The notes under the pieces: model-generated
The model's database searches: none
Seen by the model: the letters and a program-made list of their open reading frames with translations, nothing else
What the model was told of the DNA's origin: nothing
Part shown: piece by piece, positions 1,137 to 40,259 of the stretch
How the letters are laid out: the number at the start of each line of letters is the position of its first letter
Position numbering within the stretch: position 1 is the first letter of the stretch
Origin: an uncultured Candidatus Saccharibacteria bacterium
GTDB taxonomy: Bacteria; Patescibacteriota; Minisyncoccia; Phycocordibacterales; UBA9973
Direction of reading: 5' to 3'
NCBI GenBank assembly: GCA_964402895.1
Contig: CAYODR010000002.1
Location: 41,666-105,665 of the forward strand
Length of the DNA stretch: 64,000 nt
Program-made: the position numbers and the translations under genes

Positions 1137-1791
1137 CTACAATGCGACCACGCTCAATTGTGACAATACGATTACCAACTGCTTTGATAAGCTCAGGATC
1201 GTGTGTCGCGAGCACAACTGTAGTACCGAGGTCATTTATTTTCCTTAGAATATGAATAACTTCTTTTGTATTTTTAGCATCAAGATTTCCGGTCGGCTCA
1301 TCAGCAATCAATACTTCTGGTTGATTGATAATAGCACGAGCAATAGAAAGTCTTTGTTTTTCTCCGCCAGAAAGCTGTCTAGGAAAATGAAACATTCTAT
1401 CTTGTAAATCAACAAGCTGCAGTACATGTGGCACATCACTTACGATCTCTTCATCAGTCTTACCCGCAGCTTCCATTGCAAAAGCAATATTTTCATACGC
1501 AGTTTTATTACTTAATAATCTAAAATCTTGAAAAACCACACCCACACGACGACGAAGCTTGGTTAAATCTCTATTAGAAAACATATCTAAATTTGCATTC
1601 TCAAACAACACAGCACCTTCTGTGGGATATTCCTCAGCTAAAATGAGTTTACTTAATGTTGTTTTCCCGGCACCTGATGGCCCGATAATTGTTACAAGGT
1701 CTCCTTTTTCAATTTCTAAGTTTATATCTTCAAGTGCGACTGCACCATTTGGATATATTTTTGAAACATTGATGAATTTTATCATTGTCAT
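1105..1791 (-). CDS. ftsE: cell division ATP-binding protein FtsE (ABC ATPase)
   Basis: Walker A GPSGAGKTT, ABC signature LSGGEKQRLSIARA, Walker B LIADEPTGNLD; ftsEX operon order. Confidence 0.9.
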   Translation of the reverse strand: MTMIKFINVSKIYPNGAVALEDINLEIEKGDLVTIIGPSGAGKTTLSKLILAEEYPTEGAVLFENANLDMFSNRDLTKLRRRVGVVFQDFRLLSNKTAYENIAFAMEAAGKTDEEIVSDVPHVLQLVDLQDRMFHFPRQLSGGEKQRLSIARAIINQPEVLIADEPTGNLDAKNTKEVIHILRKINDLGTTVVLATHDPELIKAVGNRIVTIERGRIVGDEQKRAPKL

Positions 1792-1799
1792 GCTAGGTA

Positions 1800-2684
1800 T
1801 TATAGCATGTGATTCTCATCTAGGAATACTTCAATATCCCCATCTTCAAGTACACCATCAATATTGTGAACTTCTACCCCACTTAAATGATCTTTAATTT
1901 GTTTATATGGATGAAGAACATAACTCCTCATCTGGCTTCCCCACTCTATATCAGTACTTTTTGAAATCTTCATTCCAGATTCTTGAGCAATCCTTTCTTC
2001 TTCTTGAAGTTTAAAAATTTTTCCACGAAGTATCTCTTTTGCTCTTTCTCTATTTTGTTCCTGACTCCTTTCATTTGAAGCATTCACACTTAAACCGGTA
2101 GGTTTATGTACAATACGCACCGCAGTCTCTCTCTTGTTTACATTCTGTCCTCCTGGTCCACCTGCACGCGCAAAAGAAATATCTAAATCATTATCATTTA
2201 AAATCACACTTGTATCTCGACTTTCAAGTTCTGGTACCACCTCAACCAAAACGAAAGATGTTTGCCTTTTGCCACCAGAATTAAATGGTGAAATCCTGAC
2301 AAGTCTATGCACCCCAGATTCACCCTTTAATATTCCATAAGATTTTTTTCCATCTATCGAAAAGGTGATATTTCTATATCCACCAAGAGTATTTGGGGTA
2401 TCATTTAAAATGCTCAGACTCCAACCCTTTTTTTCAATATACTTGCTATACATTCTAAAAAGCATTGATACAAAATCCTCCGCATCATCACCGCCTGCAC
2501 CCGCATAAATAGTAATGATAGCATTTGATTTATCATGTTTATCAACACCCGAAAGTTTATCTTTCAAATCCTGAAGTTCTTTAATCTCTGATTGCGCCGC
2601 ATTTTTATCATTCCAAAAATCCGCCTGCATCATCGCATTTTCTATTTCAGTTATTCTATTTTGAATTTCTTCTTTATTCATCAA
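1800..2684 (-). CDS. prfB: peptide chain release factor 2 (short N-terminus, no programmed frameshift)
   Basis: SPF tripeptide motif (RF2-specific), GGQ motif ([11 protein letters not shown]), 294 aa; single continuous ORF. Confidence 0.85.
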
Positions 2685-2960
2685 TTAAAACAAATCACTG
2701 TGTGAACCAATATCTACTAATATTATTTCTTTTATAGCTTTTTCAACTTTATAAATAAGCAATAAATCTGGTTTTATATGTAATTCTCTATACCCCATAA
2801 AATCACCTAATAATTTATGATCTTTATACCTTTTGGGTAAAACCTCTCCATTACTTAGAAAATCTAAAATATTTATAAAATCTTTTTTGGAAAAATCTCC
2901 AGAATTCTTTATTTTCTTGAAAGATTTTTTGAAACTTTTAGTATGAGTAAAGGTATACAT
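2685..2960 (-). CDS. type II toxin, RelE/YafQ family
   Basis: 91 aa; ...KDHKLLGDFMGYRELHIKPDLLLIYK...IGSHSDLF resembles YafQ/RelE mRNA interferases; immediately downstream of DinJ-like antitoxin. Confidence 0.75.
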   Translation of the reverse strand: MYTFTHTKSFKKSFKKIKNSGDFSKKDFINILDFLSNGEVLPKRYKDHKLLGDFMGYRELHIKPDLLLIYKVEKAIKEIILVDIGSHSDLF

Positions 2961-2963
2961 ATA

Positions 2964-3230
2964 CTACCAACTCTCTATTTCTTTAATAAAATCTTTTTTA
3001 CTTTTAGAATTTTTAGCCTTAGCTAAGAGAACTTCTTTATCCCATTTATCTTTAATGTCTTTAGGGTTTTTTGTAATACTAAAAGGAATAGAATTTTTTT
3101 TGATTACTTGATTTAAAAATATTTTTATACCAGAAGATATATCAATACCTAAATCGTCAAAAACCCTTTTCGCTTGTTTTTTAGTTTTTTGATCAATGCG
3201 TATTTGGATAGTGGTATTTTGTGTATTCAT
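2964..3230 (-). CDS. type II antitoxin, RelB/DinJ family
   Basis: 88 aa; TIQIRIDQKTKKQAKRVFDDLGIDISSGIKIFLNQVI matches DinJ ribbon-helix-helix N-terminus; 3 nt upstream of toxin gene. Confidence 0.7.
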   Translation of the reverse strand: MNTQNTTIQIRIDQKTKKQAKRVFDDLGIDISSGIKIFLNQVIKKNSIPFSITKNPKDIKDKWDKEVLLAKAKNSKSKKDFIKEIESW

Positions 3231-3272
3231 AATTCTATAATAATATTATGTAATGACAATGTCAATACATAA

Positions 3273-3980
3273 TCACTTCTTTTCAAAATAACAAACCACA
3301 CTTCTTCTTTTATTTGGCTTCCCCCTGATGTTGTGCTTGTGAGATGCTTCTTTATGCATAAGCTCAAAATCTTCACTAAAATTATCTTCTAGCGCCTTAT
3401 CTGTCCAGACATATTCATATACTCCAAGCTTTGGATGTATATATGCATTTTCTTCTCCTGCACCTTTGTTTTTTATCAAATCTTTTGCATGCTTATCGCC
3501 TTCTGCATAAAATGATTTAAAAAATAAAACACCCTGTGGTTTTAAAACTCTTTTTACTTCTTGTATATATTTCTCTCTTTCTACTTCTTTTAAGAAATGA
3601 CTTGCCATCATATCAAGTACAATATCTACACTTTCATCTGGAAGTGGAATCTCTTGACCAATAGATCTTACTTCAAAAACAAGTTTACTACCCCATTTTT
3701 GTTCACTTGCCTTCTTTTGAGCCTGAGTTATAGCTTCATTTGAAATGTCATATCCCAGACCTTTTACACGATATATATCATTAAGCCAAAGAAGGTTGCG
3801 ACCATTACCACAACCGGCATCTACCACCATCACATCTGGGCGAAGCACATCTTTGCCGTATTCTTTTTGTAGCCATCTAACAAATTTCTGTAAATCCCCA
3901 CTAACTTCATCGGAAAGCGCAAAAAACATTGGATCCTTATATTCCTTATCCCAAAATTCTTTCAATCGCTTTTCATTCAT
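3273..3980 (-). CDS. class I SAM-dependent methyltransferase
   Basis: Motif I VVDAGCGNGRN, downstream acidic motif II (GYDIS), 235 aa. Confidence 0.7.
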   Translation of the reverse strand: MNEKRLKEFWDKEYKDPMFFALSDEVSGDLQKFVRWLQKEYGKDVLRPDVMVVDAGCGNGRNLLWLNDIYRVKGLGYDISNEAITQAQKKASEQKWGSKLVFEVRSIGQEIPLPDESVDIVLDMMASHFLKEVEREKYIQEVKRVLKPQGVLFFKSFYAEGDKHAKDLIKNKGAGEENAYIHPKLGVYEYVWTDKALEDNFSEDFELMHKEASHKHNIRGKPNKRRSVVCYFEKK

Positions 3981-4030
3981 AGTGCTATACTAGCACACTT
4001 TTATTTTTATCTAAATATTATTAATTAAAA

Positions 4031-4053
4031 AACCGCCGAAGCGGTTTTTTATT
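4031..4053 (-). terminator. rho-independent terminator downstream of typA
   Basis: aaaaaccgccgaagcggtttttt hairpin plus T-run. Confidence 0.65.
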
Positions 4054-5853
4054 TTAAGATTTCCTTTTTGCTTTAGATCTATCTGTTTCTGTAAGATACT
4101 GCTTACGAAGACGCGCTGACTCTGGTGTGATTTCTAAATATTCATCATCACTCATCACCTCAAGACCCCGCTCAATAGTCATGAGAAGTGGCGGGGTAAG
4201 ATTTACTGCTTCATCACTTCCACTTGCGCGCATGTTGGTAAGCTGTTTTCCTTTTGTTGGGTTTACAGTCATCTCTTCTCCTTTAGAAGTATTACCGATA
4301 ACCATACCTGCATATACTTCTGTTTGTGGACCAATATAGAGAGTCCCCCTATCTTGAAGCCCCCAAAGAGCAAAAGCTAGAGCTTTACCTGTCTCCATAG
4401 AAATCATAGAGCCTACACTCTTGCGAGTTATTTCGCCTGCATAAGGTTGGAATCCAAGAACTCTTGAAGACATGATACCTTCACCATGAGTATCTACTGT
4501 AAACTGACTTCTATATCCCAGAAGTCCACGAGTAGGACCAGTAAATATCATACGCACAGTGGCATCATTCATTTGCATATCGCCCATTATGAATCCTCTC
4601 ATACCAAGCTTTTCAATAATCACACCTTGATAATCAATCGGTGAATCAATAGTCACTTCTTCAAAAGGCTCACTCTTAACACCATCAATATCTTTGATGA
4701 TTACTTGTGGTTGAGAGATTTGCATTTCATATCCTTCACGGCGCATAGTTTCAAGAAGTACCGCAATGTGCATTTCTCCACGACCAAATACTTTAAAACC
4801 TTCTGCTAATCTGCTTTCATCTGGAGAAAAATCTACCTTAAGACCTACATTCACCTCAAGCTCTCTTTCAAGTCTTTCTCGAATCTGACGACTTGTTACA
4901 AATTTTCCTTCACGACCAGCGAATGGAGAGTTATTTACCAAAAAATCTAAGACAATAGTTGGTTCATCAATAGTAATGGCAGGAAGAAGTTCTGCTTCTT
5001 TTTCTTTACTAATAGTCTCACCGATAAAAATATCCGGAATACCAGCAATCATCACAATGTCTCCTGCTTGCGCTTCAGAAACTTCTTCACGAGTAAATCC
5101 ACGGAATGTGAAAAGCTTTACTATTTTTGATGCACGCACTTCACTTCCTACGCCTTCTACATATACAGTATCACCTGCTTTAGCCACACCCTCATACACA
5201 CGACCCACAGCAAGACGCCCTAGGAAATTATCATATGCCAAGTTGAAGGCCTGCATACGAAAAGGTTTAGTTGTGTCATTTTGTGCAACCGGAACTTTTT
5301 CTAAAATAGTTTCAAAAAGTGGTTGAAGATCCTTTTTTTCATCTTCAACATTTTTCATGGCTACACCATCACGCCCAATAGCATATACGGTCGTAAAATC
5401 TAATTGCTCATCATTTGCACCAAGCTCCATGAAAAGCTCAAAGACAGCGTCATGAGTTTTTGATACATCACTCCCTGGTTTATCTATTTTATTGATTACA
5501 ACAATAGGCTTAAGCCCAAGCTCAAGAGATTTTTTAAGTACAAAACGAGTTTGAGGCATTGGACCCTCTTGAGCATCAACAATCAAAAGCACAGAGTCTA
5601 TACTACGAAGCACGCGCTCTACTTCACTACCAAAGTCCGCGTGACCCGGAGTGTCTACAATGTTGATTTTTGTGTCTTTATAATAAACTGCAGTATTTTT
5701 TGCGTATATAGTAATACCTCTTTCAGATTCAATTTGGTTTGAATCCATAGAGCTACCCTCTTTCATCTCACCTGAAAAAGCAAGCATCTTGTCTGTAAGT
5801 GTGGTTTTTCCGTGGTCCACATGTGCAATAATTGCAATATTTCTAATTTCCAT
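4054..5853 (-). CDS. typA: translational GTPase TypA/BipA
   Basis: 599 aa; G1 [22 protein letters not shown]; EF-G-like domain order with BipA-specific C-terminus. Confidence 0.9.
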   Translation of the reverse strand: MEIRNIAIIAHVDHGKTTLTDKMLAFSGEMKEGSSMDSNQIESERGITIYAKNTAVYYKDTKINIVDTPGHADFGSEVERVLRSIDSVLLIVDAQEGPMPQTRFVLKKSLELGLKPIVVINKIDKPGSDVSKTHDAVFELFMELGANDEQLDFTTVYAIGRDGVAMKNVEDEKKDLQPLFETILEKVPVAQNDTTKPFRMQAFNLAYDNFLGRLAVGRVYEGVAKAGDTVYVEGVGSEVRASKIVKLFTFRGFTREEVSEAQAGDIVMIAGIPDIFIGETISKEKEAELLPAITIDEPTIVLDFLVNNSPFAGREGKFVTSRQIRERLERELEVNVGLKVDFSPDESRLAEGFKVFGRGEMHIAVLLETMRREGYEMQISQPQVIIKDIDGVKSEPFEEVTIDSPIDYQGVIIEKLGMRGFIMGDMQMNDATVRMIFTGPTRGLLGYRSQFTVDTHGEGIMSSRVLGFQPYAGEITRKSVGSMISMETGKALAFALWGLQDRGTLYIGPQTEVYAGMVIGNTSKGEEMTVNPTKGKQLTNMRASGSDEAVNLTPPLLMTIERGLEVMSDDEYLEITPESARLRKQYLTETDRSKAKRKS

Positions 5854-5945
5854 AATAAAAAGTGATTAAGCTTAAGCCGTGATTATACATCAAAAGCAGC
5901 AAAAATCAAAGATTTTTGCTGCTTTTGTAATTTAAATATAAAACT

Positions 5946-6611
5946 TTATGGCTTAAGAACAATACGCCCCTCAATCTCAAATTCATTTGGAACACCCGCA
6001 ACAAATGGAATACTTGGTATAACCAAATCAAAATCTTTTCTATTTAAATCAGCATCTATCTCAGCCACAAAACTATCAATGCCTTTGTATAAATCTAAAT
6101 CAAAAGAAATTCTTTTTGTTTTTCCATTTAAAAATAAATCACCCATTAAATCCAAATCAAACTTATTTTGATCTTCTCTGTCTTGTTCAAATTTTTGAAC
6201 AGTGATATTTGTAATTTTAGCAAATTCTTGCCCTTCATTCTCGCTTTTAACGATAGACCTGACTATTGCATTATCGCGTTGTGGATTGTCTGTCTTAAAA
6301 GTACGAGCATCTACATAGATGTCGCTAATTACAATACTATCTTTATCAAGATTTCCATTTTTTAAAATAAGACTTCCGTTAATTTCATTTGTTTTACCAA
6401 CAACAGTAAATGGATTACCTCTTAAAATTTCGTCTATTTCAAATCTTATTTCTGAATTTTCTTTATCTACTGAATAAACAATATCACTTTCACTTACATT
6501 CACTGCCGGATCTATCTGAACATCTCTCATCTTGATTGGTCTAGTAAAATACTTATAGAAAGCAAAAGCTAGAACTAACAAAACTAAAATTAAAATAATT
6601 ACTTTTTTCAT
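5946..6611 (-). CDS. YceI-like family protein (secreted)
   Basis: N-terminal TM/signal; EIRFEIDE...ARTFKTDNPQRDNAI resembles YceI polyisoprenoid-binding fold motifs. Confidence 0.45.
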   Translation of the reverse strand: MKKVIILILVLLVLAFAFYKYFTRPIKMRDVQIDPAVNVSESDIVYSVDKENSEIRFEIDEILRGNPFTVVGKTNEINGSLILKNGNLDKDSIVISDIYVDARTFKTDNPQRDNAIVRSIVKSENEGQEFAKITNITVQKFEQDREDQNKFDLDLMGDLFLNGKTKRISFDLDLYKGIDSFVAEIDADLNRKDFDLVIPSIPFVAGVPNEFEIEGRIVLKP

Positions 6612-6683
6612 AAATAAATTATATCATAACAAAATAAAATTTATGAGATGTATTTGACATTTATATAGATATATGTATAATGT

Positions 6684-6908
6684 GTGAAAACAAAACCCTA
6701 TATCTATATGAACTTCAGACAAAAATTTACTGCAATAAATGCTTATGTTTTTATTGTAGTAGCAACTATCATATTGCTCTTGCATCATACAAGAACAATA
6801 AATGAAACAACTATTCCAGTGATAAAAGTACTCGCAGTTATAGTACTTGTGAGCTGGGTTATTTTATTGATAACAATCCCCTTTTTTCATAAAAAGAGGG
6901 AGGGTTAA
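6684..6908 (+). CDS. small hypothetical membrane protein (2 TM)
   Basis: 74 aa ORF with two hydrophobic helices; no homolog recognised. Confidence 0.3.
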   Translation: MKTKPYIYMNFRQKFTAINAYVFIVVATIILLLHHTRTINETTIPVIKVLAVIVLVSWVILLITIPFFHKKREG

Positions 6909-7013
6909 AATATCCTTTTCGATAGCAATATTGAGTTACCACCACATCTCCCTCCTTTTTTAGATAGGGAGATGTTTTTTATTAAATAGAATTCTTAATT
7001 ATTATTTTAAGAT

Positions 7014-7265
7014 CTACCGATGAATACATCCTGGCCAACAACAAGGCCTACGCTTTCCTTCTATAAGTTCTGTGCGAGCCCTATCAATTCTTCGATTCCT
7101 TGTCTCTGTTTTCTTGGCAGACTCAACCCAACAAATCCATTCATTGCGTGCTAGTGGTGTTATATCTTCCCATGCTATCCTTGCTCTTTCAGAAGAAAGA
7201 AGAACTTTTTTTAAGTCTGTTGGTACTTTGTGTACGGTAGCTCTGGAAATTTCTTTCTTACTCAT
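7014..7265 (-). CDS. YdeI/OmpD-associated family protein (short)
   Basis: 83 aa; C-terminal RRPCCWPGCIHR motif characteristic of that family. Confidence 0.5.
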   Translation of the reverse strand: MSKKEISRATVHKVPTDLKKVLLSSERARIAWEDITPLARNEWICWVESAKKTETRNRRIDRARTELIEGKRRPCCWPGCIHR

Positions 7266-7274
7266 ATGATTATT

Positions 7275-7943
7275 TTAACTTAAATATTTGAATCTAGAAA
7301 CAAGTTCTTTTTTAAAAGCATAAAGAGCTATCAACAATCCAGAAATCTCCAAGATTTCTTCAACTGAAGACGCAATAATATAATATAGGTGGGACTGTCC
7401 GAGCGTATCATAAAAATACGAACCAACCATCTCCATACCTACTGCTCCGGATATAAAAACAATCACAGATAAAATTATCATACGCTTATTTCTTAAACGC
7501 ATGATAAATGGTAAATAATATATTGCTAATATCCCAAACAAAATCATATATGGGATAACCCAAGCAAAAGCTAAAAACCCTCCTGTATTCAGAAAAATCT
7601 TAATAGGCTCTGTTAGCTGCTCATGTATTTGTGCTAGCTCATCAAGTCCTAGAAATAAAAAGAGTATCATAGTAAAAATCCAAGGAATTATAGAATTTCC
7701 TTTTTCTCTTTCTAGTGCACCGATAGTCCAAGCAATCACACCCAGTAAAATAAATAGTAAGACAGAGTAATATGTTGGCAGATTTGCTTCAAGTCCAACA
7801 TGAAAAAACTGAAAAATAAACTTATTAACAAAAAGTGGGTATTTTATAGCTACAAGTTGAAATACTATATGTACACCGACAAGAAGTGCTCCAGTCCAAA
7901 TTAGATATTTATAAAACCCTGATAGATATTTCTCCCAATTCAT
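7275..7943 (-). CDS. hypothetical integral membrane protein (6 TM)
   Basis: 222 aa, multiple hydrophobic helices; no family recognised. Confidence 0.5.
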   Translation of the reverse strand: MNWEKYLSGFYKYLIWTGALLVGVHIVFQLVAIKYPLFVNKFIFQFFHVGLEANLPTYYSVLLFILLGVIAWTIGALEREKGNSIIPWIFTMILFLFLGLDELAQIHEQLTEPIKIFLNTGGFLAFAWVIPYMILFGILAIYYLPFIMRLRNKRMIILSVIVFISGAVGMEMVGSYFYDTLGQSHLYYIIASSVEEILEISGLLIALYAFKKELVSRFKYLS

Positions 7944-8024
7944 TATGGTTATTATACAAATATTAGTAAATAATAAAAGCTTCTATACAATCTTTACATC
8001 ATATTTTATGGTATATGTCAATAG

Positions 8025-8111
8025 CGGAGGATAGGAGATTCGAACTCCTGAGGGCATTACTACCCTGCCACCTTTCCAAGATGGTGCACTAGACCGCTAT
8101 GCGAATCCTCC
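8025..8111 (-). tRNA. tRNA-Ser (anticodon GGA)
   Basis: Manual fold: acceptor GGAGGAT/ATCCTCC, 3-bp D-stem, anticodon stem CCATC/GGTGG, loop TTGGAAA, long variable arm, T-arm GGAGTTCGAATCTCC. Confidence 0.8.
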
Positions 8112-8146
8112 ACAACATACATATTATATATGTATGTTGTGATTGT

Positions 8147-8854
8147 CTATTCAAAAGAAATTTCTTTTTCTTCTTCCCCTATTTTATATTTAAGAGTACT
8201 TTGTCCTTCCCAAGAAATGAAAGATGCATTTTGCATGCGGGCATCCAAATATTCTGTATCATTTATTTTTTCTATGATTTCTAAAGTATTTGCATCATAT
8301 ACATAAAGCCCACATTTTGCTTCAAAACAAGAACCTCTATAAACAAAGTATTTTCCATCAGCTGAGAACCCTAAAAATTCATTTCCTAAATAATAGTTAG
8401 TGAGCATTTTCACCCCACCTTCTTGTGTATATACACCTACAACAGTATCCGGTGCCAAAGTGTCGCTTTCAATGGTAAAACCAACAACATCATTTTTAAG
8501 AGATGAAAAAACATTCTTAAAACTAGTCTGTTCTCTAAAGCTCTCTACGCTCATACAAAAAGATTCTCTTCCAAATACACCCATCATGTTAAATTCATCA
8601 CAAAGATCACTATTTTTAAAAAATTCAAAAATTTGCTCATTATCAATAGAAAGATAGACAGAATCACCACTCATGATTTCTTTTTGATTATTAGAGAGAG
8701 TATATAGGTTTAAAATAACCTCTTCTTGCGTCTTCTCTTCTAATGAAGAAGACAATGTCTGCCTATTTGTATCATACGCATACTTAATAAGCCAAACTAA
8801 AAATAATACAACTGCGATACCTGCTATGATTTGGAAAAATTTTTGTTTATTCAT
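8147..8854 (-). CDS. hypothetical secreted/membrane-anchored protein
   Basis: 235 aa; N-terminal TM (IIAGIAVVLFLVWLI); no family recognised. Confidence 0.5.
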   Translation of the reverse strand: MNKQKFFQIIAGIAVVLFLVWLIKYAYDTNRQTLSSSLEEKTQEEVILNLYTLSNNQKEIMSGDSVYLSIDNEQIFEFFKNSDLCDEFNMMGVFGRESFCMSVESFREQTSFKNVFSSLKNDVVGFTIESDTLAPDTVVGVYTQEGGVKMLTNYYLGNEFLGFSADGKYFVYRGSCFEAKCGLYVYDANTLEIIEKINDTEYLDARMQNASFISWEGQSTLKYKIGEEEKEISFE

Positions 8855-8994
8855 ATATATAATTATAGTTTTTTATAAGATAAAAACAAATACTTTAAAA
8901 CCCGACCTTAGTACTCTTTGTGATAAAACATCATAAACACAAATATTATTTTAATAAAAAAACCTTTAAATAAAAGTCGGAGAATTTTAATATA

Positions 8995-9480
8995 CTATTT
9001 TCCCCCAAGATCTTCAGAGTCTCTTATTTTCATCCATATTTTTCCTAAGATATTTTCACCATTTCCATCAGGCCCTGCTCCCCAAAAATTATCTATGGGA
9101 GAATTTTCAATTATTTTTTTATTACCCGTCTCTCTTAAAACCCTTCTCACCTTTTCATGCTGTCTGATTTTAGCTTTTAAAATCTCTTCCATAATTTGAG
9201 TCTTTTTATTATGAAAATCTATAGGCACATGTGTTCTATGCTCATCTGAAATCTTTTTAGCAATACTTGGACTAGGTGCCATTAATATATCATTAGCTAA
9301 TTCAGGCTTTGAATTTTCAAATTTTTTCCACTGATATGCGTGTTCAGCTGTTAAGAATTTATTTCCCCATATATCTACAACATATGCGGAAAAATTATCT
9401 AATGCATAAAATACTGGGGTATAAAAATAAATAGCATCATCAGTTTCTTTGTTAAAATCATTTCCTAAAAATTTATTCAT
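8995..9480 (-). CDS. NADAR family protein (YbiA-like N-glycosidase domain)
   Basis: AEHAYQWKKF...NSPIDNFWGAG..GNGENILGKIWMKIR matches NADAR/DUF1768; start trimmed to ATG 9480 because the longer ORF would run through tRNA-Ser at 9519..9605. Confidence 0.7.
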   Translation of the reverse strand: MNKFLGNDFNKETDDAIYFYTPVFYALDNFSAYVVDIWGNKFLTAEHAYQWKKFENSKPELANDILMAPSPSIAKKISDEHRTHVPIDFHNKKTQIMEEILKAKIRQHEKVRRVLRETGNKKIIENSPIDNFWGAGPDGNGENILGKIWMKIRDSEDLGGK

Positions 9481-9518
9481 ATTCTCTAAATAATTAAACT
9501 TGCACCAAATTCTTTTAG

Positions 9519-9605
9519 CGGAACCGGTGGGATTCGAACCCACGAGGGCTTTTACACCCTGCCTCTTTAGCAAAGAGGTACATTCGACCACTCTGACACG
9601 GCTCC
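9519..9605 (-). tRNA. tRNA-Ser (anticodon GCU)
   Basis: Acceptor GGAGCCG/CGGTTCC, anticodon stem CCTCT/AGAGG, loop TTGCTAA, long variable arm, T-arm GGGTTCGAATCCC. Confidence 0.8.
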
Positions 9606-9682
9606 ATAAAGATACTTTATCATATATAAAAATAAGGACAAAATATATACACGAATATAAATAAGGGGTATAATATTTTTGT

Positions 9683-10114
9683 ATGAAAAATATTATAAAG
9701 AGAAAAGTTTGTACTTCACAATTTATTATCCGATTATTTATTGGGACCATTTTCTTAGCACATGGTATTGCTAAATTCAATATCGGAATGGATGGTGTTT
9801 CAGAATTTTTTGGAAGTGTATCCATTCCCTTCCCAACATTCTTTGCCTGGGTTGTGACATTACTTGAAACATTTGGTGGACTATTTATTATTCTTGGTGT
9901 TTTTGTCAGAAAGTCAGCAACACTTTTGATGTTTACTATGCTTGTGGCTATTTTTACAGCCAAGAAAGGATTACCCTTAGTTGGCGGATATGAATTAGAG
10001 CTCGCACTTATAGCTGGACTTATACCATTATTAGTACATGGCGCAGGAAGATATTCTATAAAGAAATTCTTCAAGAAAAAAGAGGTACAAAATACTCCTA
10101 TCCCTCAATATTAA
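9683..10114 (+). CDS. DoxX family membrane protein
   Basis: 143 aa, 4 TM; FLAHGIAKF...FFAWVVTLLETFGGLFIILG typical of DoxX. Confidence 0.75.
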   Translation: MKNIIKRKVCTSQFIIRLFIGTIFLAHGIAKFNIGMDGVSEFFGSVSIPFPTFFAWVVTLLETFGGLFIILGVFVRKSATLLMFTMLVAIFTAKKGLPLVGGYELELALIAGLIPLLVHGAGRYSIKKFFKKKEVQNTPIPQY

Positions 10115-10117
10115 AAC

Positions 10118-10165
10118 AATAAAGAAAGGCATATCCAAAAAGATATGCCTTTCTTTATTAAAACA
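10118..10165. terminator. bidirectional hairpin terminator
   Basis: aaagaaaggcatatc..gatatgcctttcttt perfect 15-bp stem with A/T flanks. Confidence 0.6.
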
Positions 10166-10204
10166 TTTAATTATGCTAATATCATAAACACAAAGACCAT
10201 TACT

Positions 10205-10294
10205 GGAAGCGTGGATGAGTGGTTGAAATCAACGGTTTACTAAACCGTCAGGCTGTAAAAGGTCTCGTGGGTTCAAATCCCACCGCTTCCGCCA
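10205..10294 (+). tRNA. type II tRNA (Ser-like, encoded CCA), apparent anticodon ACU
   Basis: Acceptor GGAAGCG/CGCTTCC+G+CCA, 3-bp D-stem, anticodon stem ACGGT/ACCGT with loop TTACTAA, long variable arm, T-arm GTGGGTTCAAATCCCAC. Confidence 0.6.
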
Positions 10295-10346
10295 AGGGTT
10301 AGTTTATACACTTTCCCACTAGTTTTTAATAATAACAAATAAAGAT

Positions 10347-10796
10347 ATGGAGTACGAAAATATATGGAATAAAGTTTTAAGAGAAGATGAAAAAATTGAT
10401 TATGAATTCTCTATTGGTAAAAGATACCGAATACTTGGTTTGATAGTATCAGTGTTCACAGGCCTTATTATATCATTAGGATCTTCAACTGTTGGATTAA
10501 TTATCATCGGGCTCGGAGCATTCTATTTTGGATATTACCTAAAAGTAGCGAACGCATATGCTCTTACAGATCGAAGAATACTTGTTCATAGAGGATGGTT
10601 TTCAACAAACACCATAAGTGTTGATTATAAAAATATAACTGATATTACTGTCGATGAGCCATTCCTTGAACGTATCACCACAAAAACTGGTACCCTCTCG
10701 ATCAACACAGCGGGGTCGGGCACAAAGGAAATTGTTCTCAAACATATTAATACACCCTATGAAGTTCGTAAAAGGTTAGATAAAGGGCGAAACTAG
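10347..10796 (+). CDS. bacterial PH domain (bPH_2/YdbS-like) membrane protein
   Basis: Two N-terminal TM helices followed by YALTDRRILVHRGWFSTNTISVDYKNITDITV motif. Confidence 0.65.
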   Translation: MEYENIWNKVLREDEKIDYEFSIGKRYRILGLIVSVFTGLIISLGSSTVGLIIIGLGAFYFGYYLKVANAYALTDRRILVHRGWFSTNTISVDYKNITDITVDEPFLERITTKTGTLSINTAGSGTKEIVLKHINTPYEVRKRLDKGRN

Positions 10797-10841
10797 AATA
10801 ATTAATAATTTACGAAAATATTAAACCCGTTCCACACATTC

Positions 10842-10988
10842 CTAACTAAAAGCTTATGATAACATCATCACACCAACATGTAATCGGCGGTTTTGACCTT
10901 TTCCAAGATTTGCTTTGAATATTGTGAGCATGCTTTGAACTTGCTCAAAATTCATAAAGTCTGTAATGCCAATATACGGGATATACAT
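10842..10988 (-). CDS. small ORF (48 aa) with strong Shine-Dalgarno
   Basis: GGAGGAAATT 6 nt upstream of ATG; MYIPYIGITDFMNFEQVQSML...; not in ORF track (<60 aa). Confidence 0.25.
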
Positions 10989-11066
10989 AATTTCCTCCTT
11001 TTTTAATTTGTGAATATTTTTTATTTACCTAAGATATTACTTATTTAAAGGAAAAAGTCTAGAAAC

Positions 11067-11336
11067 CTAAAAAGATTCATATATATCTTTTCTATGACCC
11101 ACAGCAAATAAAACTGCCTCATCATTTTCTATGTAAAAAATACCACGATAAGATCTATTGATTCTAAAAGAAAAAACATTTCCACTACCAATTCCTTTTA
11201 ATTTTTTAATATGTAATTGTGGATGAAAAATATTCTCCAGTAAAAAATCTTCCTGTTTTTCAAGAAGTACTCTATCTTTATTTTCTAAACGCGCAACCAT
11301 TTTTTTATAATCACTTGTTTTGAAAATTTTTATCAT
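11067..11336 (-). CDS. type II toxin, RelE/ParE family
   Basis: 89 aa; 4-nt overlap (ATGA) with upstream antitoxin; ...IKKLKGIGSGNVFSFRINRSYRGIFYIEN..VLFAVGHRKDIY. Confidence 0.7.
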   Translation of the reverse strand: MIKIFKTSDYKKMVARLENKDRVLLEKQEDFLLENIFHPQLHIKKLKGIGSGNVFSFRINRSYRGIFYIENDEAVLFAVGHRKDIYESF

Positions 11337-11569
11337 TTCTTATTCTTTAAAGATTTTTTATATGCTGATAAGATTTCATTTTTATTAGAATAATTTCCCA
11401 AAGAATCTGTTGGCAACTTTGAAATCGTAATACCCTGATTAATTATAAATTGTCTTAATGAAGCATTTATAATATCTGCTAAAGAAAAGCCCAGCTCTCC
11501 TGCTAATTTTTTAGCTTTATCTTTTAGGTCCTTTTTAGTTCTTATCAAGATAGTTGTATCCATATACAA
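11333..11569 (-). CDS. type II antitoxin (RelB/DinJ-like RHH)
   Basis: 78 aa; TILIRTKKDLKDKAKKLAGELGFSLADIINASLRQFI; upstream 24-bp perfect palindrome atacaaaagtatatacttttgtat (11573..11600) as candidate operator. Confidence 0.6.
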   Translation of the reverse strand: MYMDTTILIRTKKDLKDKAKKLAGELGFSLADIINASLRQFIINQGITISKLPTDSLGNYSNKNEILSAYKKSLKNKK

Positions 11570-11665
11570 AAGTATATACTTTTGTATATTAATGTCAAAT
11601 ATGTTTTATGTCTTTCATATGCATCAAAAATATGCTTTAATACAGAAAACTAAAAAAGGAGACAT

Positions 11666-12245
11666 ATGAAAATTGGATTAGACTTTGACGGTGTAATTGC
11701 TGACTGTGGTCAACTTAAATCACAGGCAGCAAAAGAAATCTATGGTATAGATGTACCAAGAGAACTTTTTAAAAGAGAAATCCTTATTGAGAACGGAATA
11801 ATGTCCGGTAATCAATATAGTGAATTTCAAAAAATAATCTATCACACCATGGAATTTGGGTTAAGAATGGAACCTGTAAAAGATTCATTTGAGTTTATAA
11901 ATAAACTTCTCGATCTTGGATACAGCGTAGAAGTCATAACCTCAAGATCTGACTCATCGCTTGATGTAGCCAAAGAGTGGTGTAAAAAGAATGGCTTGAA
12001 CATTCAAAAATTCACAGGAGTTGGGGGGGGGTAGAAGTAAGGCTCGGGCCTGCCAAGGTTTAGACATCTATATAGATGATGACCTGGACAAGATTATCCC
12101 TCTCGCAGTCATTGTGCCTCATAGATTTTTATTTTCTTGGGGGTATAATGAACAAATTTTAGAACAAAACCATGCAAAAAGAATTCATTCTTGGAAAGAA
12201 TTCTTTTGTGAAATAATGCTTCTCTCAGATATGCGATCTTACTAA
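11666..12245 (+). pseudogene. HAD-family 5'(3')-deoxyribonucleotidase-like gene, split by frameshift at a 9-nt poly-G tract
   Basis: N-terminal ORF (GLDFDGVIAD motif I) stops at 12034; C-terminal ORF (...DIYIDDD motif IV) continues in +1 frame from 12021; deleting one G fuses them. Confidence 0.65.
12023..12031. repeat. homopolymeric G9 tract (candidate slipped-strand site)
   Basis: ttGGGGGGGGGtag in a ~30% GC genome. Confidence 0.8.
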
Positions 12246-12510
12246 AGACCGCATATTTTTATTTAAATTAGAAATGATATTTATCAAAATTATTTTCAGG
12301 TTGTATAAGTGATTCCATACATCACATTATATGATATATAAAGTAAAGCTCCTTAAATATGAGTATTCAAAAACTCTTTAATTTATTGGGTTTTCTAATC
12401 TCTATAACTCCCTATACTAACTGATATATCTGTGCTACAATGTCCCCATTGTAATGTGCTCCTCTCGAAAAAGGTCCGTTGCAAGTAATAATAAGTAAGT
12501 AAAATTAAAA

Positions 12511-12771
12511 ATGAAAAATAAAGTTTTCGTTGGGAGTATTTCTTTTAATACTACTCAAGAAGGATTGTCAGCATACTTTGCACAAGCTGGTACTGTAACT
12601 AGTGCAAACATCATTAATGACAAAATGACTGGTCGCAGTAAAGGTTTCGGATTCGTAGAATTCTCTACAGAAGAAGAAGCTCGTGCAGCAGTTGAAAAAC
12701 TTAACAACACTGAACTTGACGGAAGAACTATCTTTGTAGACCTTGCACAACCTCGTGTTGAAAACAAATAA
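12511..12771 (+). CDS. RRM-type RNA-binding protein
   Basis: 86 aa; RNP-2 VFVGSI and RNP-1 KGFGFVEF motifs. Confidence 0.85.
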   Translation: MKNKVFVGSISFNTTQEGLSAYFAQAGTVTSANIINDKMTGRSKGFGFVEFSTEEEARAAVEKLNNTELDGRTIFVDLAQPRVENK

Positions 12772-12780
12772 TTAATATAA

Positions 12781-12807
12781 ATCACGCCGCCCTTCGGGCG
12801 GCGTGAT
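12781..12807 (+). terminator. rho-independent terminator
   Basis: cacgccgcccttcgggcggcgtg GC hairpin followed by ATTTATATTT. Confidence 0.75.
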
Positions 12808-12814
12808 TTATATT

Positions 12815-12892
12815 TGAAAACAACACAACATGTTTATATTTAGAAACAACATAATATGTTTATATTTAGAAACAACATAATATGTTTATATT
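12815..12892. repeat. 3 x 26-bp tandem direct repeat, each containing palindrome AACATA-A-TATGTT
   Basis: tgaaaacaacacaacatgtttatatt / tagaaacaacataatatgtttatatt x2; upstream of membrane protein-recG unit. Confidence 0.75.
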
Positions 12893-12981
12893 TAAAAACC
12901 TTTTCTAGTGTTTTATATTTTAAAAACTTTTTCACATCTCTTATGTGGCACTTTCAAATTTAAAGATGTATAATATATTTA

Positions 12982-13422
12982 ATGAAAAAAGTTATCGTAA
13001 CTAAAAGAATATTACTTTCTATCGTCATCGCCGTAATGCTTTTAAGTGTCTTTGGAAAATTCATAGGGCGCGAAACTATAAACATGCTATATGGACAAGC
13101 CAATCTCTCTGATCAGATGATTCATATTGCAGCTCTCCAGCTTATCACAGTTATTTGTCTTGTTTATAAACCCCTTCGCAACCTTGGCGTACTTCTAGGA
13201 AGTACTATACTTGGAGGAGTAATATTCCTAATGTGCTCTACTGGCAACAACCCTATTATTGCTATCGCTACACTTATTATCCTTTGGGTTGCTTATAAGC
13301 TAGACCTACTTACATACTGGAAATATCTAACCCGCAAAATAGAGTGGATTCCTAAAAAAGAAACAGAAGAAACATTTAGAACTTGTCAGATAGAAATGAA
13401 AGACGGTGTATATAAGTGCTAA
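12982..13422 (+). CDS. hypothetical membrane protein (4 TM)
   Basis: 146 aa hydrophobic ORF directly upstream of recG. Confidence 0.5.
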   Translation: MKKVIVTKRILLSIVIAVMLLSVFGKFIGRETINMLYGQANLSDQMIHIAALQLITVICLVYKPLRNLGVLLGSTILGGVIFLMCSTGNNPIIAIATLIILWVAYKLDLLTYWKYLTRKIEWIPKKETEETFRTCQIEMKDGVYKC

Positions 13423-13441
13423 TTTGGTACAATAGTACTAT

Positions 13442-15619
13442 ATGGAAAAAATTAACCTAGAAAGCCCGATTTCAGACATCATCCGCTTAAAAGAAAATAT
13501 AAAACTAGGCTTAGACCGTCTTAAAATCCACACAATCAAGGATCTTCTTTACCACTTCCCTACAAGATACGCAGATGCTAGCGTATTTACTTCTATTTCT
13601 GGATTAAAAGATGGAGAGACTGCTACTATCCGTGGTACTGTTCAAAATGTAAATACAAAAAAATCATGGAAGACAAAAGTGCCGATGAGTGAAATGGTGG
13701 TTGAAGATGTAAGTGGTAGTATTAAGGCTATCTGGTTCAATCAAGCATATCTTGCCAAAATGATATCTAAAGGAAATATTGTAGAACTCACAGGAAAAGT
13801 ATCTATGTATAAAGATACTCCGGCATTAGTTAATCCTATTATCCGAGAAGAAAAATCTATGCCTATAGATAATCATGATTCACTTTTTGGTGATGATACA
13901 AAAGACGGCATACTAACACCGATATATCCTGAGACCAAAGGAGTTTCTAGTCTATGGTTTTCCCATACTATATCCAGAGCTCTCTCAAAATTAGAAGACA
14001 TACCAGAACACATTCCGAAAGAAATACTTGAAAAATATTCTCTTCCGAACATAAAGTCGGCTTTAATTTGGATACACAGCCCTAAAAATAAAAATGATGC
14101 AACTATTGCAAGAAAAAGATTTGCTTTTGATGAAATCTTTTCTATCAATGTAGTTCGTCAACAAGAAAAAAATCGTATAAAAAATATTAAAGCTTATAGT
14201 ATAGATATGAGTACTATTGATATGGAGTATTTTATGAAAAGATTTTCTTTTAAGCTCACAGATGCTCAGCAAAAATCAGTCAGCTCTATTTTAAATGATC
14301 TAGAACAAGATGTCCCAATGTCTAGACTACTTGAAGGTGATGTCGGTAGTGGAAAAACAGCCGTAGCAGCAGTGGCAGCATACGCAACTGTCATGAATAG
14401 GCCCAACAATACAAAGGGCGCCAAGCAGACATTTGGAAACCTACAAGTTGCGTACATGGCTCCAACTGAAATCCTAGCTACTCAACACTTTGAATCTTTT
14501 ATAGAGCTTTTTGAAGGTACAGGTATATCTATTGCACTAATTACCGGAAGTGGATGCAGAAAATACCCAAGTAAAGTTGCATCAAATACTAAAAGTTGGA
14601 CAAATATTTCCAAAAGCCAACTTTCTAAATGGATTGAAAATGGAGAAATCCCCATAGTCATCGGTACACATGCACTCATTCAAAAAAGTCTAAACTTCAA
14701 ACACTTAGCCTTAGCCATCATTGATGAGCAACATCGTTTTGGACTTAAACAAAGACAATCTTTAGCAAAAAAAGACACACACTTTCCACATTTATTATCA
14801 ATGACTGCAACACCTATTCCCCGAACTCTTGCGCTCACTATCTATGGTGACCTTGATTTATCTATCTTAGACTCTATGCCAGAAGGCAGAAAACCAGTAA
14901 AGACTATTCTGACTCATCCTGAAAAAAGAGATAATATGTACTCAGAAATTAAAAATCTTCTTAAAGAAGGTCGTCAGCTTTATGTCATCTGCCCCAGAAT
15001 AGATGAACCAGACCCACAAAAACAAAAAGCTCTACAACTAAAATCCGTAAAGTCAGAAGCAGAAAGACTTAAGAAAGATATCTTTCCTGAATACGAAATA
15101 GATATCTTGCATAGTAAAATGAAAAAAGATGAAAAAGAAGAAGTTATGCAAGCTTTCAAAAATAAAGAAATAGATATTTTGGTAGCAACATCAGTTGTTG
15201 AGGTGGGAGTAAATGTACCCAATGCAACAATCATCATCATTGAAGGCGCAGAAAGATTTGGACTTGCCCAGCTCCATCAACTAAGAGGAAGAGTTATCAG
15301 ATCAAGCCATCAAGCATATTGCTACATACTAGCAGATATAAAATCAGAAAAAACTTCTGAGAGAATGAAGTATTTTATAGAAGCAAAAAATGGTTTTGAA
15401 TTAGCTGAATATGATCTTGGTATGCGCGGTAGTGGAGAGCTTATAGGAAAAAGTCAGTGGGGTGTCAGTGACATCGGAATGGAAGCACTGCGTAATCTAA
15501 AATTAGTTGAAGCAGCTAGAGATAGTGCCCAAGAGCTCGTGTCAAAAGACCCAGATCTAAAAAATAATTCTAACCTTTCTAAAATAGTCTCTAAATACGA
15601 AACTATGCACTTTGAGTAA
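13442..15619 (+). CDS. recG: ATP-dependent DNA helicase RecG
   Basis: 725 aa; wedge domain, helicase motif I DVGSGKT, motif II DEQHRFG, motif VI QLRGRVIRS. Confidence 0.9.
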   Translation: MEKINLESPISDIIRLKENIKLGLDRLKIHTIKDLLYHFPTRYADASVFTSISGLKDGETATIRGTVQNVNTKKSWKTKVPMSEMVVEDVSGSIKAIWFNQAYLAKMISKGNIVELTGKVSMYKDTPALVNPIIREEKSMPIDNHDSLFGDDTKDGILTPIYPETKGVSSLWFSHTISRALSKLEDIPEHIPKEILEKYSLPNIKSALIWIHSPKNKNDATIARKRFAFDEIFSINVVRQQEKNRIKNIKAYSIDMSTIDMEYFMKRFSFKLTDAQQKSVSSILNDLEQDVPMSRLLEGDVGSGKTAVAAVAAYATVMNRPNNTKGAKQTFGNLQVAYMAPTEILATQHFESFIELFEGTGISIALITGSGCRKYPSKVASNTKSWTNISKSQLSKWIENGEIPIVIGTHALIQKSLNFKHLALAIIDEQHRFGLKQRQSLAKKDTHFPHLLSMTATPIPRTLALTIYGDLDLSILDSMPEGRKPVKTILTHPEKRDNMYSEIKNLLKEGRQLYVICPRIDEPDPQKQKALQLKSVKSEAERLKKDIFPEYEIDILHSKMKKDEKEEVMQAFKNKEIDILVATSVVEVGVNVPNATIIIIEGAERFGLAQLHQLRGRVIRSSHQAYCYILADIKSEKTSERMKYFIEAKNGFELAEYDLGMRGSGELIGKSQWGVSDIGMEALRNLKLVEAARDSAQELVSKDPDLKNNSNLSKIVSKYETMHFE

Positions 15620-16108
15620 TTAACAATTTATCTCTTGATATTTTTGCTCACTTACAAGTCTATCAAGTTTTGGTACAAGCATTCCTTCTGATTCTTCAAG
15701 CTCATATCTAAGCTTAATTAAACCATCATTTACAATTTTATAAATTTCTCTTTCCGAATTTTGAGAACCTTCTACTGTATATGAAAATACTGCCTCTATC
15801 TTATCCCCCTTCACAAAACCATCAATATCGCCAAAATACCCATTAGACATGGTCGGGCCAAATTGAGTACCAACTTTTTTTCCACTAACAATATTACCAT
15901 CAAAATCTAAACTAATCCTCTCGCTAACACTATAAGGAGCATCTTCTAACGCTCTTTGTTCATACATAAAACACCTAGAAAATTCTTGAAAAGTACCTGT
16001 ACTAATTACACCCACATCTTCTTGATTGTTTTTATTTAACACCAAAAGTACCGTACTAAATACTACTATTGCAATCACACCTAAAATCAAAATTTTTTTA
16101 AAATTCAT
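15620..16108 (-). CDS. hypothetical secreted protein
   Basis: 162 aa; N-terminal TM/signal ILILGVIAIVVFSTVLLV. Confidence 0.45.
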   Translation of the reverse strand: MNFKKILILGVIAIVVFSTVLLVLNKNNQEDVGVISTGTFQEFSRCFMYEQRALEDAPYSVSERISLDFDGNIVSGKKVGTQFGPTMSNGYFGDIDGFVKGDKIEAVFSYTVEGSQNSEREIYKIVNDGLIKLRYELEESEGMLVPKLDRLVSEQKYQEINC

Positions 16109-16175
16109 AAATACATTATCTCATGAAATTAAGATAATCCTAAGTTTTTTGACAATAACACGGGGTTATGATTAT

Positions 16176-16733
16176 ATGTCTCTAAATACTAAATCAATAT
16201 ATATGAAAAAAATCAAAGAAATCTCTGGATACCTGGGCGTAGACCAGAGAGAGCTTGAGCTGAATCTTGGTGTATATAATGCACCGAAAAGTTTTCATGA
16301 AGCTCAAAATATGTATGATATTTTGATAAATTTAAATAATAAAAATCTTCTTGATAAACTTTATCAAGACTGGAACAAACTCTATGTTTTTGCTTTAAAC
16401 AGAAGTAACAACCTAAAGGATCTTAAAAATCTATTTGAGAAAATTCCTATAGTTTTACCCGCCACTGAGAGAGTATTGCATAAATGGAAAATTCGCTCAA
16501 AAATAGATATTAGACTACCTCACAATCTTCGGAGCCTAAAGTATCTGTATGAAAATATTTACTTTAGACCCAATGATTGGGAAATGAAATCTGAAGCATT
16601 TGCAATGTACACGGAAGAAACAGAGGTATTGCTTGAAAATGCTCAAAGCTTAAAAGACCTTAAATATATCTTAATGTATGGCGAGCCGAACATTAAAAAA
16701 AGGGCTTTTGAAAAAGTAAAAAAATTACTTTAA
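16176..16733 (+). CDS. hypothetical protein
   Basis: Start trimmed to ATG 16176 (MSLNTKS...) to avoid overlap with convergent upstream gene; no family recognised. Confidence 0.4.
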   Translation: MSLNTKSIYMKKIKEISGYLGVDQRELELNLGVYNAPKSFHEAQNMYDILINLNNKNLLDKLYQDWNKLYVFALNRSNNLKDLKNLFEKIPIVLPATERVLHKWKIRSKIDIRLPHNLRSLKYLYENIYFRPNDWEMKSEAFAMYTEETEVLLENAQSLKDLKYILMYGEPNIKKRAFEKVKKLL

Positions 16734-16796
16734 AGGTAGTAAACTAATAAAATAAACTCCCTGCGTACACAAGATGTATGCGGGGATTTTTTAATG

Positions 16797-16870
16797 TGGG
16801 AGTAGATGGATTCGAACCATCGACCGCAGAGGTATAAGCTCTGTGCTCTAACCAACTGAGCTATACTCCC
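16797..16870 (-). tRNA. tRNA-Ile (anticodon UAU)
   Basis: GGGAGTATAGCTCAGTTGGTTAGAGC A CAGAG-CTTATAC-CTCTG CGGTC GATGGTTCGAATCCATC TACTCCC A; Ile-like body with TAT anticodon. Confidence 0.75.
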
Positions 16871-20360: not shown

Positions 20361-20735
20361 GGGGATGACAGGTTTCGATATATAAATGCTTTAAATATAT
20401 GCATACCGAGCATGAATAAACTCGTTAAATTTATTCAAAACGATTAACTGGCAACAGTATCGCAAAAGTAAAGTCACCTTTTAGTGGCTTTGCTCCGGCA
20501 TTCGCTTAAATAAGCCAATCTGGTGTCGTACGAAGTGAAACTTGATAACTTCATTACGGCAAAATTCATCAAGTTATAGTTTTATACTGTCTTGATATAA
20601 AACTGAAAATAAAAGACTCGAAGAAATATCATTTTGTAAGGTTTATAGATTTTCTTTTAAAAAACAAAACCATACTAAGTATGTAGATTATATTTAATGC
20701 CTTATATACACGGGGTTTCGATACCCCCATCTCCA
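20361..20735 (+). ncRNA. ssrA: transfer-messenger RNA (tmRNA, ssrA)
   Basis: 5' GGGGATGACAGGTTTCGA pairs with 3' ...CATCTCC+A (tRNA-like acceptor); T-arm GGGGTTTCGATACCCCC; internal tag ORF ...AKVKSPFSGFAPAFA-TAA; directly after smpB. Confidence 0.8.
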
Positions 20736-20742
20736 CAAAAAA

Positions 20743-37863: not shown

Positions 37864-38208
37864 TTATTTTTTCTTATCAGAAGTAGATGCCTTCGCTGCT
37901 CTTGCTGCTGCTATTTCTGATTCTTTCTTTTTCTGATCAAGCTCTTTTTGCATCTTACCTCCATGGCGTGTGAACTTACGAGTAGGTGAAAATTCACCCA
38001 GCCTGTGTCCGACCATATCTTCAGTAACAAGAACTTCTATGTGTTGACGACCGTTGTGTACTCCGAAAGTAAAACCAACCATTTCTGGAGCTATCTGACT
38101 GTCTCTTGACCATGTCTTAATAACACCAGCTGAAAGTGGCTGTTTTCCTTCGATTTTTTTAATTAGCTTTGGGTCAACATATGGACCCTTGTGTAGTGAT
38201 CTTGTCAT
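37864..38208 (-). CDS. rpsS: 30S ribosomal protein S19 (with lysine-rich C-terminal extension)
   Basis: Start trimmed to [12 protein letters not shown]; ORF-track N-terminal 22 aa are hydrophobic junk. Confidence 0.85.
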
Positions 38209-38289
38209 GATTTTAATAAAAAGAGGCTCTTTCTGAGCTGATGCATATATTAGCAAATTATAGATTAATGTCAAATATTTCCTCTATAT

Positions 38290-38685
38290 TTAAAAGATTA
38301 GCACCCAAATCTTAGGAAGAAAAATTATAAGTCCAATAATAAGCGCCCCAATTCCTGCTATGAGCACAGCTCCTGCTGCAACATCTTTTGAGTCTTTTGC
38401 ATATGGATGATATTCTGGACTACTTAAATCTACATCAAACTCTATTGCCGTATTAACAGCTTCAGTCACAAGTACACCCGATATAGCCAAAACAACCATA
38501 CACCACTCTACAGGGCTTATCTGGAGCCAAAAACCCATACATATGACTAGAATACCCACAGACAAATGTATCCATGAATTATGTTGAGTCAAAACTATAA
38601 CTCTTAAACCACGAAAGGCGTATTTAAAACTTCTTGCCCTTGCAATAATAGAGAATCTCTTTTTTTCTGGGATTAGATTGTTCAT
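38290..38685 (-). CDS. dgkA: diacylglycerol/undecaprenol kinase (DgkA family)
   Basis: 131 aa; RARSFKYAFRGLRVIVLTQHNSWIHL...EAVNTAIEFDVDLSSPEYHPYAKDSKDVAAGAVL matches prokaryotic DAGK; inserted between rpsS and rplB. Confidence 0.8.
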   Translation of the reverse strand: MNNLIPEKKRFSIIARARSFKYAFRGLRVIVLTQHNSWIHLSVGILVICMGFWLQISPVEWCMVVLAISGVLVTEAVNTAIEFDVDLSSPEYHPYAKDSKDVAAGAVLIAGIGALIIGLIIFLPKIWVLIF

Positions 38686-40238: not shown

Positions 40239-40259
40239 CTTTATTTCTTATACAAAACA

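Follow-up and report, generated by a model that had tools for sequence, protein, structure and literature searches.

A nine-base G tract splits an NT5C-like phosphatase gene of an uncultured Patescibacterium and may act as a slippage switch

The window analysed here (the whole 64-kb stretch of DNA, at its full length) is asymmetric between its strands, with 54 of the 69 long open reading frames (ORFs) on the minus strand and with 12,290 C against 9,473 G on the plus strand. Its RNA genes include a complete tmRNA (20361-20738, plus strand), a complete class A RNase P RNA (50041-50364, minus strand) and a tRNA-Ile with anticodon TAT (16796-16870, minus strand), AUA thus being decoded by a tRNA with a UAU anticodon. 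A class I release factor ORF with PCRF and RF-1 domains (1800-2684, minus strand) has about 293 amino acids (aa), which is short for an RF1 or RF2, and a YafQ/RelB toxin-antitoxin pair lies directly upstream of it. We are concerned with a run of nine G's (G9) at 12023-12031 on the plus strand, which with its surroundings reads ACAGGAGTT GGGGGGGGG TAGAAGTAAGG, within the gene for an NT5C-like HAD phosphatase. The 5' fragment of this gene (11666-12034, plus strand; 122 aa, carrying motifs I and II) begins with MKIGLDFDGVIAD and ends with FTGVGGG, and its stop codon, TAG at 12032-12034, abuts the run; a Shine-Dalgarno-like AGGAG (11657-11661, plus strand) can be read 4 nt 5' of the ATG at 11666. 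The 3' part of the gene lies in the +1 frame (12030-12245, plus strand, corresponding to G120 to Y192 of the repaired protein), contains RSKARACQGLDIYIDDD and RSKARACQGLDIYIDDDLDK, and is closed by a stop codon at 12243-12245. An earlier, sequence-only reading of this stretch had proposed that a 9-nt G tract splits a HAD gene, the upstream ORF stopping at the tract and the +1 frame resuming downstream, and our analysis bears this out.

The lengths of the run that keep the gene in frame are 8 and 11. With eight G's the junction reads GTT GGG GGG GGT AGA (V G G G R); deletion of one G gives a HAD protein of 192 aa, and addition of two G's gives one of 193 aa with a single extra glycine. The earlier claim that loss of one G fuses the two ORFs holds, although the fused protein has 192 aa in place of the approximately 195 predicted. 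A further AGGAG, again read from the sequence, lies 2 nt 5' of the run at 12016-12020 (plus strand), so that 12016-12034 reads AGGAG TT GGGGGGGGG TAG; it matters only to a minor rival explanation, +1 frameshifting, taken up below. Separate translation of the 3' half was rejected, because this AGGAG abuts the only available start codon (TTG at 12021) and because the product would lack motifs I and II. The G9 allele, in which the enzyme is cut between motifs II and III, is best explained as a null allele.

Once repaired by removal of one G, the protein matches a single family along its length. It matches Pfam NT5C (PF06941) with 31.5 bits against a gathering cut-off of 24.8, residues 3-179 aligning with positions 4-170 of the 180 in the profile, and 339 database homologues were found at E <= 0.001; the homologues listed cover 93-100% of it, nearly all are 185-195 aa long and 50-60% identical to it, and they come from metagenome-assembled genomes (MAGs) of Patescibacteria and from MAGs labelled as DPANN. 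In an alignment of 27 sequences (the query and 26 homologues), the junction GVGGGRSKARAC (GVGGGRSK) aligns without gaps to the consensus GVG[Y/G]GxSKAxAC, and all 33 invariant columns are kept, 11 of them after the shift (K125, D137-139, K142, V150, L155, Y160, N161, S175 and W176). Motif I (D6-F-D8-G-V10, in DFDGVIAD) falls in columns that are invariant in this alignment, and motif II (T92/S93), motif III (K125) and motif IV (D137-D139, DDD) are likewise all present and invariant. The four motifs share one chain only once one G has been removed; in the assembled sequence, the +1 frame encodes motifs III and IV.

AlphaFold2 modelled the repaired protein as one domain (pLDDT 93.2, pTM 0.87), in which the junction created by the G tract maps to the loop after strand 115-118; this loop, GVGGG, precedes the motif-III lysine. 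When the model was compared with the PDB by Foldseek, the best 16 matches were all of NT5C type (TM 0.68-0.77 over 188-204 columns, E 5e-10 to 1e-7) and comprised S. epidermidis 3bwv, the cytosolic 5'(3')-deoxyribonucleotidase (cdN) of mouse and human, its human mitochondrial counterpart (mdN) and designs built on mdN. The four HAD motifs and the end-to-end fold, a Rossmann-like core with a small helical cap, are common to the repaired protein, to cdN and mdN (NT5C and NT5M) and to the deoxyribonucleotidase-like 3bwv; however, its sequence identity to these enzymes is only 18-21%, and it stands in a distinct clade of 185-195-aa proteins from Patescibacteria and DPANN MAGs. Searches of the PDB with the repaired protein gave no match by single sequence and marginal matches only by profile (E 0.14-0.5), and a search of NCBIfam gave no meaningful family and no equivalog. 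Taken together, sequence and model indicate one NT5C-like phosphatase, from a distant clade of the NT5C family, split between motifs II and III. The sequence-only reading had offered as a check that the fused protein should align end to end with NT5C-type deoxyribonucleotidases, and had named a failure to match any single family over the full length as the result that would speak against it; the Pfam match, the homologues and the fold agree on the first outcome, and a single-family match over the full length is what we found.

The part of the protein encoded after the shift is 63% identical to the homologues and the part before it 52%, compared with 67% and 64% for the same two regions among the homologues themselves. 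Because there is no decay 3' of the shift, the frameshift is very recent, reversible or not real. This bears on the explanation that the gene is a fixed, one-way pseudogene, in which a chance G8 on Gly-Gly-Gly codons slipped once and left a dead accessory gene on its way to loss, any switching being neither maintained nor selected. The absence of downstream decay, with the invariant residues all kept and identity above that of the upstream part, argues against such a history, as does the ease with which a G9 run reverts, given which a one-way event would have to be very recent. The surroundings of the gene argue for it, since the gene is part of a 2.1-kb variable islet in which it has a toxin-antitoxin pair as neighbour, and it is missing from the nearest strain. 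On balance we regard the pseudogene explanation as rather unlikely.

The islet was delimited by comparison with related strains, found via cluster members, two of which (L081 and L082) share the flanks with the window at about 85% DNA identity and are without the HAD islet. Positions 4041-6983, 8024-8891, 9518-10296 and 12410-16841 of the window are common to L081; the strain-variable islet itself (10297-12409), absent from L081, encodes a bPH_2 protein, the ParE-like toxin/antitoxin pair and the HAD protein. At the corresponding site (5153-9793) L081 has a different insert, of 4.6 kb, with a resolvase, metK and small ORFs. The islet begins directly after the 3' end of a tRNA-Ser gene (10205-10294, plus strand), and we found no convincing direct repeats flanking it. 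The anticodon of this tRNA-Ser, ACT (A34), is unusual, its CCA end is encoded in the gene, and L081 has it conserved at 5061-5150. Just upstream of the antitoxin gene lies a perfect palindrome of 14+14 nt (ATATACAAAAGTAT/ATACTTTTGTATAT, 11562-11598), which overlaps a sigma-70-like promoter on the minus strand (11 of 12 positions); it is probably an autoregulated toxin-antitoxin operator.

No homopolymer was found at the HAD junction in any of 79 homologous loci from species representatives (573 kb), and those homologues that have GVGGG encode it with mixed codons, for example GGG GGT GGC or GGT GGT GGT. These 573 kb contain three G or C runs of at least 8 nt, none of them at the junction and none visibly breaking a gene. 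A Nealsonbacteria MAG (L023) has a C9 (4556-4564) at the extreme 3' end of its HAD homologue, where a change in length would be predicted to alter only the C-terminal tail.

The window contains a second, similar tract, at 39237-39246, where C10 on the plus strand is G10 on the minus strand and occupies codons 13-15 in the leader-coding part of a gene that resembles type IV pilins and has an N_methyl motif (38769-39282, minus strand; 170 aa when repaired), located between rplB and dgkA/rpsS. This tract, too, is one G too long. From the ATG at 39282 (minus strand) the gene opens with MKILPANSKRQI-GGG-, and with ten G's the frame ends five codons after the tract; with nine G's it encodes MKILPANSKRQIGGGYTLKSR/AFTLIELLVVIAIIGILA, a prepilin of 170 aa (N_methyl, E 8.6e-8). 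The leader of the repaired pilin has 21 aa, the same length as that of the paralogue just upstream (39320-39970; MKNLQADSKRQIRFRYSSYRK/AFTLIE), and the G run occupies the place of AGA TTT AGG in the paralogous leader. In the OFF state a TAG overlapping the first G closes the pilin frame, and the next in-frame start falls within the hydrophobic helix. In Neisseria pilC a poly-G run lies in the region coding for the signal peptide, where extra glycines are harmless and a change of frame switches expression. The tract at 39237-39246 shares with pilC its place in the leader region of a pilus gene, although the gene considered here codes for a subunit that resembles pilins and carries the N_methyl motif of prepilins, and not for a PilC adhesin, and lies between rplB and rpsS. 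Poly-G in the leader of a pilus gene is the classic layout of a contingency locus, and of the two tracts the one in the pilin gene is the better candidate.

Within the S10 ribosomal operon, pilin-like gene(s) and a dgkA-like gene (DAGK_prokar) separate rplB from rpsS (37864-41137, minus strand), and the same interruption is present in two related strains, L084 (1825-4104) and L085 (1827-4074). The window has two pilin paralogues in the ribosomal cluster and these strains have one; the presence of a pilin inside the core ribosomal-protein cluster is conserved within the lineage. In place of a Shine-Dalgarno sequence, both pilin genes of the window (39283-39300 and 39971-39990, minus strand) have a TATAAT or TACAAT box 6-8 nt 5' of the ATG; the same arrangement is found upstream of the pilin genes in L084 and L085, so the mRNAs may be leaderless. 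Logan contigs from four samples all end in the pilin stretch, between rplB and dgkA (at the start of L083, the ends of L086 and L087, and the start of L088, which corresponds to 39224); repeats, strain variation or the G tract could be responsible.

L084 and L085 keep the order rplB-pilin-dgkA-rpsS, with pilin leaders that are short and lack the tract, and about 58 kb of sequence from related strains contains no G or C run longer than 6. Look-ups with genes close to the right end of the window, aimed at a larger sample of the genome, yielded nothing. Both tracts are thus strain- or lineage-specific. The same comparisons weigh on the possibility of recoding, that is, that full-length enzyme is made from the G9 gene by +1 ribosomal frameshifting or by slippage of RNA polymerase, which would yield some G8 transcripts. 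Some features of the local sequence speak for this: a 0-frame stop directly follows the run (GGG GGG GGG TAG), the run resembles a Shine-Dalgarno sequence and has an AGGAG 2 nt upstream of it, and after a +1 slip on GGG-G the pairing would again be perfect and the product exactly the consensus protein of the family. The site has in common with the prfB frameshift site (CUU UGA C, with an upstream Shine-Dalgarno-like element) a potentially slippery run, an immediate 0-frame stop, Shine-Dalgarno-like sequence upstream and the need for a +1 shift, but it differs in that it is not conserved in orthologues, has a Shine-Dalgarno spacing other than the 3 nt of prfB and lacks autoregulatory logic. Recoding is further opposed by the homologous loci (0 of 79 conserve the site, the orthologues being unbroken single ORFs with mixed glycine codons) and by the pilin tract, which needs the same +1 shift and has no adjacent stop; RNA structure downstream of the HAD tract is not significant (z = -1.6), and known transcriptional slippage sites are mostly runs of A or T. 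We consider recoding very improbable.

We examined whether the length of the tract is real. The window is part of an NCBI contig of 106,003 bp. In the Logan assembly of SRR16797981 (L001), which comes from a different assembler, positions 1666-12859 of the window recur without one difference, G9 included, and since the output of two assemblers has G9, this is the majority length in the SRR16797981 reads. We also scanned all 291 homopolymer runs of at least 6 nt on both strands (289 besides the two tracts) for the signature of a frame switch. Flags were raised in 10 of 582 run-strand tests, compared with 125 of 10,000 random control positions, and the other flags that were checked (31594 and 1122) proved to be ordinary gene junctions. 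General homopolymer error was rejected on this basis, as frame breaks at the approximately 290 A/T runs of 6-9 nt are not above the rate at random positions.

An error of the consensus or assembly at the G tracts themselves is a separate matter; under it, the true lengths would be G8 in the HAD gene and G9 in the pilin gene, and both genes would be intact. Both tracts are exactly one G above their in-frame length, which a systematic overcall of length would also produce (a point against reading them as switches), the HAD sequence downstream is perfectly conserved, and the source is a metagenome-assembled genome. In addition, Logan contig L088 breaks off 12 nt before it reaches the pilin tract, and the Logan contigs of this genome are only 4-13 kb long, pointing to modest coverage or to difficulties around the tract. 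Set against this are the agreement of two different assemblers on G9 and the lack of an excess of frame breaks at A/T runs, which indicates that this is not a noisy long-read assembly; moreover, Illumina indel errors at a 9-mer rarely reach the majority. A length error thus seems to us unlikely, slightly more so than a pseudogene, and if it did occur, the tract would still be real and prone to slippage.

We evaluated whether chance could account for the tracts, judging their over-representation on 64 kb of genome. Besides the two tracts, G and C runs in the window reach at most 6 nt, and up to that length their number drops about six-fold with every further base. Under a first-order Markov model the expectation is 0.003 for G runs and 0.04 for C runs this long, figures that overstate the case because both tracts encode Gly-Gly-Gly. 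The chance test consisted of resampling synonymous codons in 81 genes of the window, with both split genes repaired and with the window's own codon usage; it gave an expectation of 0.20 runs of at least 8 nt, with a probability of 0.19 for at least one such run, 0.016 for at least two, and 0.036 for at least one run of 9 nt or more. Of the glycine codons 12% are GGG, and each of the 10 other Gly-Gly-Gly sites has one GGG at most. A chance origin is therefore unlikely for the pair (p = 0.016), with the over-representation borderline, and this counts against a pseudogene that began in pure chance. The HAD tract alone, given its tri-glycine motif, could have arisen by chance and is mildly unusual; the value of 0.19 for one run of at least 8 nt, given the proteins and their codon usage, is a point in the pseudogene's favour. 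The sequence-only reading had argued from two tracts of at least 9 nt, both disrupting genes, to contingency loci rather than chance: the two gene-breaking tracts are there, the preference over chance extends to the pair (p = 0.016) and not to the HAD tract alone (p = 0.19), and switching was not seen.

A search for length variants compared the repaired (ON) forms of the HAD protein and the pilin with 5.8 billion protein clusters and returned only the truncated fragments (P0001 and P0133, at about 100% identity), the next matches being at most 60% identical for the HAD protein and at most 47% for the pilin. JGI metagenome contigs gave 0 matches for each tract when searched with both tract flanks and any tract length between them. 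The HAD locus is carried by one sample only. In all the data searched the OFF allele thus stands alone, as a pseudogene would have it. A search of the literature for homopolymer phase variation in CPR/Patescibacteria found none, and the nearest published case comes from a Gracilibacterium, in which a 9-mer repeat gene is hypervariable (PMC6851277).

Intragenic poly-G/C loci of this kind are known from Campylobacter jejuni, Helicobacter pylori, Haemophilus and Neisseria, in small, AT-rich genomes. The tracts described here have in common with them a G/C run of 8-10 nt in a coding region of an AT-rich genome, a length far above the background spectrum, a frame that flips with a change of one base, and use of the rare GGG codon. 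They differ in that each is known at one length and neither is conserved across strains, in that the host is an uncultured Patescibacterium, and in that the HAD tract lies in the gene of a nucleotidase of cytoplasmic type instead of one with a surface or restriction-modification function. A contingency locus is defined by polymorphism in the length of its tract; of the other properties by which it is recognised, the G9 run has one, being an in-gene repeat whose length sets the frame, and lacks another, retention of the tract at the same site in relatives.

The reading that we prefer is that the HAD tract is a real, lineage-specific repeat that slipped from eight to nine G's, can switch back and was caught in its OFF state; we hold this to be about evenly balanced between right and wrong. 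According to it, the G run would have arisen on the three glycine codons of GVGGG, in the loop before the motif-III lysine, within an accessory gene in the variable islet adjacent to tRNA-Ser, where the frame needs eight G's. Slipped-strand mispairing during replication is the most likely cause that we can propose for the change from eight to nine, and Campylobacter G8 tracts are biased to insertion, which would fit it. Nine G's place TAG directly after the run and so give the null allele, and a run of this length would be expected to slip back at high frequency, making the locus mechanistically an ON/OFF (phase-variable) one, and the population may contain a mixture of tract lengths. The reading as a slippage switch is favoured by the second tract in the pilin leader, similar and likewise off by one G; to our knowledge a nucleotidase is not a classic phase-variable target, which counts against it. 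A role of the HAD tract as a contingency locus is plausible, though the case is weaker than for the pilin tract, and a selected contingency role of HAD switching is unproven.

As ultrasmall episymbionts, Patescibacteria rely on type IV pili for host attachment and on scavenged nucleotides. More tentatively than the slippage switch at the HAD gene itself, we suggest that this lineage might maintain poly-G tracts as contingency loci, through which a pilin and an accessory phosphatase of nucleotide salvage are turned on and off, a broader proposal that we consider doubtful. If the frameshift is instead only an assembly error or a fresh pseudogene, then neither the HAD gene nor the pilin should be scored as absent or broken in metabolic reconstructions of this MAG unless reads have been checked. 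If the proposal is true, phase variation based on homopolymers would be described for the first time in the Candidate Phyla Radiation, and could be found from metagenomes alone; tract length would be a simple read-level marker of such variation in metagenomes, and a strategy well known from pathogens adapted to their hosts, here applied to pilus subunits and salvage enzymes within a population, would reach into a very large radiation of uncultured bacteria.
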